The notes below the pieces were generated by a model, which had not been told where the DNA came from, did no database searches, and saw only the letters and a list, made by a program, of their open reading frames with translations. DNA of 64,000 nt from a virus. Where the stretch lies: positions 32,001-96,000 of IMG/VR virus record IMGVR_UViG_3300027777_000023, one strand, 5' to 3'. Positions 35,591 to 37,771 of this stretch are shown one piece after another (the first letter of the stretch is position 1; every line of letters begins with the position of its first letter). A program made the translations under genes and the position numbers.

Positions 35591-37771
35591 ATGAACTTTA
35601 ATTTACCTACATTTAAAAAAATCACAAAAGAGTTTGCAGAAGCAGCAAAACACGTAAAAAGCGCAGACGTCTCACTTGAAGTGAACAGACGACGCTATAA
35701 TGGTTGGGCAACGCCCGCAGCAGCCGCTGAAGAAGAGTACACATTAGCTTTGATGGATCTGCGGTTTAAGAACATCGATGCAATGTATCGGTACTGCAAG
35801 CACAAGAGTATTCCTCTCGACGGTTTGAATTGCGAGACATCAGCGTCTTTTGTTTTGAGTATATGTTCGCAGACTGTGCATGAAAGAAATCTTTGCCAGA
35901 TTTCCAGTGAGGACGCCAAAGAGTTTAAGTCGCTGAAATTACTGCCAGATAACACACCGCTTGAGCATCGACCCGTTCTGATAAAACGTACTCCATCAGA
36001 GACTACAGTAGGAAACTATACCTATCGTTTTTTAACAGGCTCAAAGAATAGTTGGAGCAGCAGCATCGATATTATTGGTCGGAATGATGAGCCATTGTAT
36101 GACTATCTGGACAAGGGGTTTTATGTTAAGTCTCTGGTTATCGCTAAAGGTACTACGAAGACGAATAGGGTTATTGTGTCGGACGTCTACGACGTAAATA
36201 CTGCGCATGTATTTGCTATGTGCAGCATCCATCCAATCCTAGCAGATATGCTCAGGCAAGGGAGCTTTATCAGCAGCTATGATGCAGAAATGCTTCGATT
36301 AAAGATGCTGAAAAAGATGCCTGAAGGTAAGAAGAAAGATTACCTGAAGGTCGCTGCAGCTATCGACACAGACTATCGCAACAATACAACATTGATTGTG
36401 GTGGGTAAGTTGATAGCTGGTGAGGCAGATAAAACCACAATCAACAATGTCACGTTCACAAAGAACTCTGCAACGTATGAAAATGTGAGCATTGAAGCTG
36501 AGGGGTTGCTTGATCTGGTGTACAGTTCAACTTCGTTCAACTTCAACAGTGAGTTCGATATCTATACTATTGTTGACCTGTATGGCAAGCACATCAGAGG
36601 TACACTAAAGCAGGATAAAGAGCCTGTGGAGACAAAGGCCGAAGGTGGACTAATTCTTGATGAGCATGTTGCTGAGTTGGAAGATCCACTGGCTGATGAG
36701 GAAGAAGACAATACTAAGAAGAAGCAGATGCCTGCATTCAAGGTGAACGGTATTGAGATCACACCCAGCATTAGCACTACCGGGCAACGCTATCTTAATG
36801 ACGTACGCATCAACAAGGAAGAAATAGATCAGGCCATCTATAGGGCAAGTTGCCACAAGACAGCGCATGACTATAAACTATTCCTGAAGTCAATCAGCCG
36901 TATGAGTATCAAATATCATGATATTATTGCGAACGGGTTGAAGGTAAAGATTCATGACTCGATGACACGGGACGAGATGCAAACTGTGGAACCTGGCCCA
37001 GCAGCCCCTGCACTCAAGTTCCATGTAGATCCAGCGGACAAGTATATCAAGATCTCTGTCACAGACGATCGCGGTGTACGAGTGAGCCTTGGCAGGCTTA
37101 TCGGTAAAATCAGGAACATCAATAAGAAAGCAAACGGTAAGCAGTATTACGATAAAGGCGCATATCACCCAAAATGGCGGAATCATGAATGGGCTCGTGA
37201 AATGCTGATCACTGCCTTGGTTGAATCCTGTACGTTTAAGACAAAAGTGTCTGAGACAGTTGTTGACGATCAAGGGGCTGAACAGATCAAAACTTCTGAG
37301 AGAACAGATGTATTGATTACCAGGGAAGACATCGTGGCCCTGATGGGTGTTGTTAATGAGCGCAAGAAAGCTGCTTTGGAAAGGTCCAAGCAATTTCTTG
37401 AAACAGCTGTAAAGATCACAGGAGCAGAACAGATCACGTTCATGGACAAGCCTGCATACAAGGTCAAGGGATCCTTGAGAGAATATGCTGTAGTTATTGA
37501 AACAGCAAAAGTGTACGACTATGAAACAAAACAGTATCGCTGTATTGTAAACAGTCAGCACTATGCAGGCACAGGCTATGACGACATCGCTGCAAGGTTG
37601 TTGGCACTGAAAAACGACAGCATGATGCAAAATGAGATTGGCACACTAGCAGGTGCAGCGCAGCCTGCTGCAGAGAACATACATAACGACTATGCGCCGT
37701 TGCGTGAAGTAGCTGTAAACCTAGAAGAAGTTGCATACAGCAAAGCAATCGAAAAAGCACTAGCGAGTTAA
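35591..37771 (+). CDS. 726-aa protein of the Ubl cassette; C-terminal Cys domain (candidate E2-like)
   Basis: Between Ubl and JAB; C-terminal strand run ending YRCIV then helix DDIAARLLALKND. Confidence 0.7.
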   Translation: MNFNLPTFKKITKEFAEAAKHVKSADVSLEVNRRRYNGWATPAAAAEEEYTLALMDLRFKNIDAMYRYCKHKSIPLDGLNCETSASFVLSICSQTVHERNLCQISSEDAKEFKSLKLLPDNTPLEHRPVLIKRTPSETTVGNYTYRFLTGSKNSWSSSIDIIGRNDEPLYDYLDKGFYVKSLVIAKGTTKTNRVIVSDVYDVNTAHVFAMCSIHPILADMLRQGSFISSYDAEMLRLKMLKKMPEGKKKDYLKVAAAIDTDYRNNTTLIVVGKLIAGEADKTTINNVTFTKNSATYENVSIEAEGLLDLVYSSTSFNFNSEFDIYTIVDLYGKHIRGTLKQDKEPVETKAEGGLILDEHVAELEDPLADEEEDNTKKKQMPAFKVNGIEITPSISTTGQRYLNDVRINKEEIDQAIYRASCHKTAHDYKLFLKSISRMSIKYHDIIANGLKVKIHDSMTRDEMQTVEPGPAAPALKFHVDPADKYIKISVTDDRGVRVSLGRLIGKIRNINKKANGKQYYDKGAYHPKWRNHEWAREMLITALVESCTFKTKVSETVVDDQGAEQIKTSERTDVLITREDIVALMGVVNERKKAALERSKQFLETAVKITGAEQITFMDKPAYKVKGSLREYAVVIETAKVYDYETKQYRCIVNSQHYAGTGYDDIAARLLALKNDSMMQNEIGTLAGAAQPAAENIHNDYAPLREVAVNLEEVAYSKAIEKALAS

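Follow-up and report, generated by a model that had tools for sequence, protein, structure and literature searches.

The 726-amino-acid (aa) protein encoded at positions 35591−37771 (plus strand) of the 64,000-nucleotide window analyzed here, which is contained in a 189.6-kb IMG/VR virus record (IMGVR_UViG_3300027777_000023) rated 97% complete, ends in a cysteine domain that, judged from profile comparisons, is a divergent member of the uncharacterized DUF7737 family. Its gene is part of a conserved cassette that also codes for a candidate ubiquitin-like protein (Ubl), a JAB metalloprotease and a ThiF-type E1. We propose, with the considerations for and against about evenly balanced, that the 726-aa protein is the Cys-bearing partner of a phage-encoded Ubl system and acts as a thioester carrier via Cys651. 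The proposal draws on the cassette and its conservation, the invariance of Cys651, the Gly-Gly-plus-tail form of the Ubl, the intact JAMM and adenylation motifs of its partners, and the homology to DUF7737; the thioester chemistry and the direction of transfer are what we infer from these observations.

The open reading frame (ORF) at 35591−37771 contained no stops and its translation gave 726 aa. The features named in the original prediction were present in this translation, with the Cys of the YRCIV motif at residue 651 (codon 37541−37543), the acidic DPLADEEEDN stretch at residues 365−374, and DDIAARLLALKND at residues 664−676, in the helix that follows Cys651. The protein, its parts and its three cassette partners were as follows, with model confidence given as the predicted local distance difference test score (pLDDT):

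35142..35471, plus strand: candidate ubiquitin-like protein, 109 aa, core ending in LTGVLRGG and followed by a tail, AAQE; no Pfam match.
35591..37771, plus strand: the 726-aa protein (P0001) studied here, described from its ORF translation, homologues and AlphaFold2 (AF2) model.
35591..36610, plus strand: N-terminal region, aa 1−340, alpha/beta, no known relatives.
36617..36712, plus strand: acidic disordered linker, aa 343−374, pLDDT <50, variable in length and sequence in the 42-sequence alignment.
36722..37315, plus strand: middle module, aa 378−575, with a conserved RINK..RASC helix and invariant Cys421 and His443.
37316..37768, plus strand: C-terminal DUF7737-like, E2-like Cys domain, aa 576−726, Cys651 codon at 37541−37543.
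37774..38199, plus strand: JAB/JAMM metalloprotease, 141 aa; Pfam Prok-JAB, 2.8e-7.
38186..38791, plus strand: minimal ThiF-type E1, 201 aa from the ATG (the start in the ORF list is a TTG at 38141); Pfam ThiF, 5e-20.

The C-terminal cysteine domain and its relation to E2 enzymes

The AF2 model of the whole protein (42 sequences, mean pLDDT 80.3) showed two halves, residues 1−340 and 378−726. Its sole long low-confidence segment, residues 343−374 (pLDDT <50), contained DPLADEEEDN, which agrees with the earlier claim that an acidic linker separates off the N-terminal part. Folded alone from 98 sequences, residues 576−726 reached a pLDDT of 91.6 and a predicted template modeling score of 0.83, and the elements ran in the order long helix, four-strand meander, Cys loop, helix and final long helix, matching the succession of short strands, Cys loop and helix that had been read from the letters. 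Cys651 (Cys76 of the isolated domain) was located 8 residues past strand 4 and 13 residues before the next helix, placing it, as a conserved Cys, in the stretch that an E2 keeps for its own, with strand 4 before it and helix 2 after it. The 13-residue spacing between this Cys and the helix resembles that of UbcH5.

Conservation of the Cys in homologues, which the original prediction had set as a check, was complete: Cys651 was invariant in 42 of 42 sequences of one alignment and in 98 of 98 of another, which reached down to ~25% identity. Invariant columns of the 42-sequence alignment comprised G627, R630, Y632, C651, D676 and T685 in the C-terminal domain, and R400, N403, R418, C421, S439, H443, N448 and K453 in the middle module. 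Cys421, invariant in all 42 sequences and also in the alignment of the distant family, was retained in at least 90% of the 98 sequences. It lies at the end of the RINK..RASC helix (36851−36853), in the same module as His443 (36917−36919), and the conservation pattern makes the middle module look like a separate active site, in which Cys421 is possibly a second relay Cys. Distant family members aligned to the protein mainly over residues 380−465 and 575−687.

The family is large and nameless, with 295 representative clusters in a library of 1.84 billion proteins and 93 homologues in 90% clusters, ~600−730 aa long, none of them carrying a name. Searches of PHROGs, NCBIfam, PADLOC, PDB sequences (with the single protein and with a profile) and GenBank phages gave no match to the 726-aa protein, and Pfam gave a weak DUF7737 match alone. 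No close phage relative was present in GenBank, where the RecA-like protein of the same genome was at most ~29% identical to its best match. Structure searches were similarly sparse: with an E cut-off of 0.001, Foldseek against PDB returned nothing for either the whole or the C-terminal model, the BFVD search returned three unnamed viral proteins and nothing else, and in the ESM Atlas residues 576−726 had no usable match while residues 1−575 led to unnamed viral clusters only. Outside the C-terminal domain, no relatives of the protein were detectable beyond its own family.

DUF7737 (PF24879) was the sole recurrent Pfam signal, found in 32 of 42 family members and in all ten isolated C-terminal domains. 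The matches covered profile positions 5−62 every time and scored 16−22 bits, below the gathering cut-off of 27 bits. In the reverse direction, a hidden Markov model built from the phage domain recovered 20 Deinococcaceae DUF7737 sequences (15 distinct) from a small database, with E-values between 3e-8 and 3e-3, and hhalign of the phage domain against DUF7737 gave 95.2% probability (E 2.6e-8) with the Cys aligned. The two share the pattern G..R.Y ... Y.CI[VI] ... LA.D, and the Cys of Y.CI[VI], fixed in the phage domains, was likewise invariant in 15 of 15 Deinococcaceae DUF7737 domains.

DUF7737 was present in 29 of 61 Deinococcaceae genomes, at the C-terminus of proteins with the architecture [HEAT or DUF5724]-DUF4132-DUF7737. 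Like the phage domain, it forms the C-terminal ~100 residues of a large protein, as in the D. radiodurans DRA0166 type; in contrast, the upstream part of the phage protein is not DUF4132, HEAT or DUF5724. Neither Pfam nor hhalign detected DUF4132 in the 726-aa protein, and when its N-terminal part and its middle part were each compared with the DUF4132 region, hhalign gave no signal, although the C-terminal position of DUF7737 is kept. In eight of ten Deinococcaceae loci a 133−140-aa ORF ending in ...LVGG or ...LAGG stood directly upstream, often overlapping the start, so that in both phage and Deinococcaceae the gene directly follows that of a small protein ending in GG. The two small proteins had no detectable similarity by hhalign (4%, no signal). 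The GG is free in the Deinococcaceae loci and no E1 or JAB adjoined any of the ten, whereas the phage has its own E1 and JAB and a Ubl with a predicted cleavable tail. A link to DNA metabolism is also common to both: the phage gene lies between those for a DNA polymerase and a RecA-like protein, and depletion of DdrO is reported to cause strong induction of the D. radiodurans drA0165-drA0166 operon, whose product DRA0166 contains DUF4132 (10.1101/2021.07.07.451423). Because the homology to DUF7737 and the pairing with GG proteins in Deinococcaceae constitute an independent association with Ubls, we refer to the phage domain as a Ubl-partner cysteine domain with an E2-like layout, an E2-like position and a proposed thioester chemistry. 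Our literature search found no mention of DUF7737.

The original prediction had called the domain a tentative E2, and this identity was only partly supported. The position in the cassette, the layout of the elements and the invariant Cys speak for it. The fold comparison, made with VIA-align against 48,161 PDB representatives and yielding weak scores throughout, gave alpha/beta matches that belonged almost all to the UBC superfamily. About ten of the top 30 matches were UEV, UBC, RWD, Cap2 or Bub E2-like chains: Vps23 UEV (4.2, with a root-mean-square deviation of 4.1 over 85 residues), VPS37A (4.0), Tsg101 UEV (3.8), Ubc9 (3.7), E2S (3.5), a chain of the Citrobacter BubCD-BubB-BubA complex (3.4, 18% identity), FANCL (3.2), an RWD domain (3.2), Cap2 (3.0) and UBE2F (3.0). 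The theme recurred in other structure comparisons, and eukaryotic E2, UEV and RWD domains, which share the order helix, four-strand meander, Cys loop, helix, were the nearest alpha/beta folds of the phage domain.

Two results weigh against the E2 identity. First, no E2 profile matched. UQ_con (PF00179) was found neither in ten C-terminal domains (E 10 or less) nor genome-wide (E 1 or less), Prok-E2_B (PF14461) and Prok-E2_D (PF14460, PRTRC protein B) were unmatched in the domain and the whole phage genome, and hhalign of the 726-aa protein against seven PRTRC_B (Prok-E2_D) sequences gave 0.2% probability. For Prok-E2_A, C and E, scanning the protein and the C-terminal domain against Pfam-A gave no match, with no genome-wide search made for these three. 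That UQ_con, Prok-E2_B and Prok-E2_D were unmatched anywhere in the genome counts in favor of the 726-aa protein as the carrier. Second, the HPN motif expected ~8−10 residues upstream of the Cys is absent, as noted from the start; the residues before Cys651 read VYDYETKQYR, and no aligned family member contains His-Pro-Asn.

Partners of the cysteine domain and known ubiquitin-like systems

The placement of the gene, at the position predicted for an E2, held up in the relatives. The Ubl gene (35142−35471), the 726-aa gene, JAB (37774−38199) and ThiF/E1 (38186−38791) followed one another in a gene order that was fixed across the IMG/VR relatives (25 loci): a family A polymerase that has a UDG-like domain, GP88, the small protein, the 726-aa gene, JAB, ThiF, a 112-aa protein, a 344-aa protein and a RecA/UvsX-like protein. 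The small protein was present in all 24 loci with upstream sequence, and JAB in all 24 with downstream sequence, with ThiF next in each (cut in one by the contig end). A distant locus, in which the homologue of the 726-aa protein was 32% identical, retained the order of the cassette; it was the one new locus that a scan with a subset of the distant-family alignment returned. The 726-aa gene stops 3 nt before the JAB start, and JAB overlaps the start of E1.

The small protein is a Ubl candidate with the core pattern FINGEKFEF…LLTG.LVGG. Across 24 related loci its homologues carried L[TS]G.[LV][VIM]GG followed by 0−10 variable residues, and with the GG fixed and the tails variable, a protease would be needed to process the precursor. 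A distant relative (L052:5442−5927) encodes a 161-aa Ubl precursor with the GG at residues 85−86, followed by a 75-residue basic extension. The JAMM signature EE.GG ... SFHTHP.F...PS.LD was intact in at least 90% of 25 JAB homologues. The E1 had a GAGGIGS loop and three Cys, C97, C129 and C159 (the last in GGCLL), all invariant. Its best NCBIfam match was PRTRC_ThiF (1.1e-14), at 54.3 bits compared to a cut-off of 144.75 bits, and its nearest annotated homologues were plasmid PRTRC ThiF proteins with 34% identity; a profile search of genome contigs with the phage-E1 alignment found nothing. In one relative (L006:11130−12928) the E1 gene was split by a 1.2-kb insertion whose 323-aa ORF encodes a LAGLIDADG domain (Pfam 4.3e-7); the insertion is a homing-endonuclease intron or intein within the ThiF gene. 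Another E1 in a replication context was seen on the Lysinibacillus fusiformis plasmid pHJ.T1 (L060, 4907−9667), where a ThiF-family homologue lies directly upstream of dnaX and DNA polymerase III subunit genes.

The PRTRC cassette, operon type 6d of plasmids and integrative and conjugative elements, consists of a Ubl (C), a helical protein (F), the E2-like Prok-E2_D (B), protein A and ThiF (Iyer, Burroughs and Aravind 2006, PMC1779556). Both cassettes run in a parallel order of Ubl, large protein, Cys domain, a gene in the JAB position and E1, and the PRTRC E2-like partner also lacks HPN (PMC1779556). In contrast, the phage genome has no Prok-E2_D and its E1 scores far under the PRTRC_ThiF cut-off. 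The remaining PRTRC models (A−F and ParB; NCBIfam, E 0.1 or less) were unmatched by the cassette proteins scanned, and hhalign of all three parts of the 726-aa protein against PRTRC A, B and F detected no similarity. We also considered DUF7737 as a PRTRC component and rejected it because it was absent from both PRTRC plasmids searched.

Bil (BilABCD), CBASS Cap2/Cap3 and Bub are likewise built from an E1, an E2-like domain with a Cys (or Ser), a peptidase (JAB or another) and a Ubl or target that ends in Gly, and both Cap2 and a chain of the Bub complex were among the weak fold matches of the phage domain. Bub, which proceeds via oxyesters, provides a precedent for non-canonical E2 chemistry (PMC11601596). 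The E2s of these systems are recognizable UBC relatives, unlike the phage domain, and the systems defend hosts against phages, unlike the phage cassette, whose genes form a core set within a phage replication module. With PADLOC models, the JAB and the E1 gave generic matches only and the 726-aa protein gave none. The cassette is therefore not a member of PRTRC, Bil, CBASS or Bub, and is of the same general kind, the prokaryotic ubiquitin-like systems.

Predicted pathway and competing readings

If Cys651 is a thioester carrier, the cassette would work in four steps. The JAB protease would expose the Gly-Gly of the Ubl precursor by cutting off the variable tail behind it; the minimal ThiF-type E1 would adenylate the terminal Gly, possibly handing the Ubl to its own invariant loop Cys159; the Ubl thioester would then be moved onto Cys651 of the DUF7737-type domain; and the phage-specific N-terminal 570 residues, with Cys421 and His443, would select the acceptor, act as a second relay, or themselves be the acceptor. 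Because the flanking genes code for a family A polymerase and a RecA-like protein, the targets may be replication or recombination proteins.

The main alternative is a sulfur-carrier pathway, in which the GG protein is a ThiS/MoaD-type carrier, adenylated by the E1 and thiolated by the host, JAB merely trims the tail, and Cys651 (perhaps with Cys421) is an acyl-disulfide or persulfide relay through which a nucleotide, DNA or a cofactor receives sulfur. The Ubl core does resemble the ThiS/MoaD pattern, the E1 is of the minimal ThiF/MoeB type, and two invariant Cys are available in the 726-aa protein; in the known case of QbsE, the tail is trimmed by QbsD. Clusters of JAB, a ThiS/MoaD-like protein and E1 in sulfur assimilation have been described (PMC1779556), and on plasmids of Alteromonas and Vibrio, DndC-like or PAPS-reductase genes occur close to PRTRC cassettes. 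However, the 189.6-kb genome has no gene for a rhodanese, a cysteine desulfurase (Aminotran_5) or a PAPS-reductase/PP-loop protein, although host enzymes could substitute, and no known acceptor enzyme of the ThiG, MoaE or CysM type was matched in scans limited to the cassette proteins. The phage E1 lacks a rhodanese domain, as do the E1s of JAB/E2 neighborhoods (PMC1779556), and Ubl tails of up to 75 residues would fit the processing of a conjugation precursor equally well. Taken together, we regard the sulfur pathway as unlikely.

The genes downstream of PRTRC cassettes in two loci (L027:10201−11982 and 14653−15666; L057:9387−11900) belong to the DndC-like/PAPS-reductase family, which hints that PRTRC ThiF/Ubl systems are linked to sulfur or DNA modification.

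We give similarly little weight to a reading in which the 726-aa protein is mainly a target or scaffold, either binding the Ubl non-covalently through a UEV/RWD-like pseudo-E2 or being modified itself, with the E1 conjugating alone. E2-independent conjugation is known from the SAMP/UbaA and Urm1/Uba4 systems, and the invariant loop Cys of the phage E1 could suffice for it; moreover, the top structural neighbors of the domain are non-catalytic UEV domains, and the bacterial pairs of a Ubl with a DUF4132/DUF7737 protein that we examined had neither E1 nor JAB adjacent. UEV and RWD domains, however, lack the Cys, whereas here it is invariant in phages (98/98) and Deinococcaceae (15/15) together with the equivalents of G627, R630, Y632 and D676. 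Such a pattern is expected of a catalytic site rather than a binding surface.

That the protein has a replication or recombination role apart from Ubls, its neighborhood merely reflecting the conserved gene order of a phage clade, is very unlikely: the 26 loci do all belong to a single broad clade whose replication modules are fully collinear, so that the co-occurrence seen in them does not represent independent events, but the pairing of DUF7737 with GG proteins in Deinococcaceae would be hard to explain if the domain were unrelated to Ubls, and the stop of the 726-aa gene is only 3 nt from the JAB start.

A broader proposal goes beyond Cys651 as a carrier: DUF7737 as a whole might be an unrecognized lineage of E2-like, thioester-forming Ubl carriers, spread over large phages and bacterial DUF4132 proteins, including the DNA-damage-induced member from Deinococcus, and the cassette a complete, self-contained ubiquitination-like machine that tags replication or recombination proteins during infection. 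This we hold to be doubtful, though a serious possibility. To our knowledge, all characterized prokaryotic Ubl conjugation systems (CBASS Cap2/3, Bil and Bub) are host defenses with recognizable E2 relatives. The phage cassette, by comparison, is a core, strictly conserved set in a whole clade of uncultured ~190-kb phages and has a DUF7737-type Cys domain as its sole E2 candidate; our literature search found no phage Ubl-E1-JAB cassette of this kind described. The interest lies in the tie between an uncharacterized Cys domain and a complete set of E1, JAB and Ubl, which would for the first time point to a function for DUF7737 and for the large bacterial DUF4132 (MolR-like) proteins, so far unexplained and in some cases induced by DNA damage. 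If the cassette conjugates, Ubl tagging would serve these phages in their own replication or in counter-defense. Its compact four genes (Ubl, Cys-domain protein, JAB and E1) could be reconstituted in vitro.

Other features of the locus

Two further elements were annotated around the cassette:

35538..35567, plus strand: terminator-like hairpin in the gap between the Ubl and 726-aa genes, with a GC-rich 12-bp stem and a T-run, from a consensus scan in which the site count was not above shuffles.
38795..40171, plus strand: two conserved genes that separate E1 from the RecA/UvsX-like gene, with products of 112 aa and 344 aa; no family match.

The hairpin could allow more transcript of the Ubl than of the downstream enzymes. 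The 344-aa gene was found in all loci with flanking sequence and the 112-aa gene was detected in about half; their products are possible partners or targets of the system. The 344-aa protein (39137−40171) has an acidic DYDNDDIPDIDF stretch recalling the C-terminal tails of SSB, followed by a Pro/Ala-rich end, and may be a single-strand-binding protein, a recombination mediator or a Ubl target.

Many relatives had an extra gene of 210−220 aa between the 726-aa gene and JAB (L002:10054−10716, L017:10376−11044, L024:10126−10752 and L006:10103−10732), a position at which the window has none; in L017 its product matched RNase_H_2 and PolB-exonuclease profiles, as a 3′−5′ exonuclease-like protein. 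Further downstream in the window (41630−42142), a 170-aa protein with no Pfam or NCBIfam match begins with MTYIGFDNG, recalling the first acidic motif of RuvC-type resolvases.

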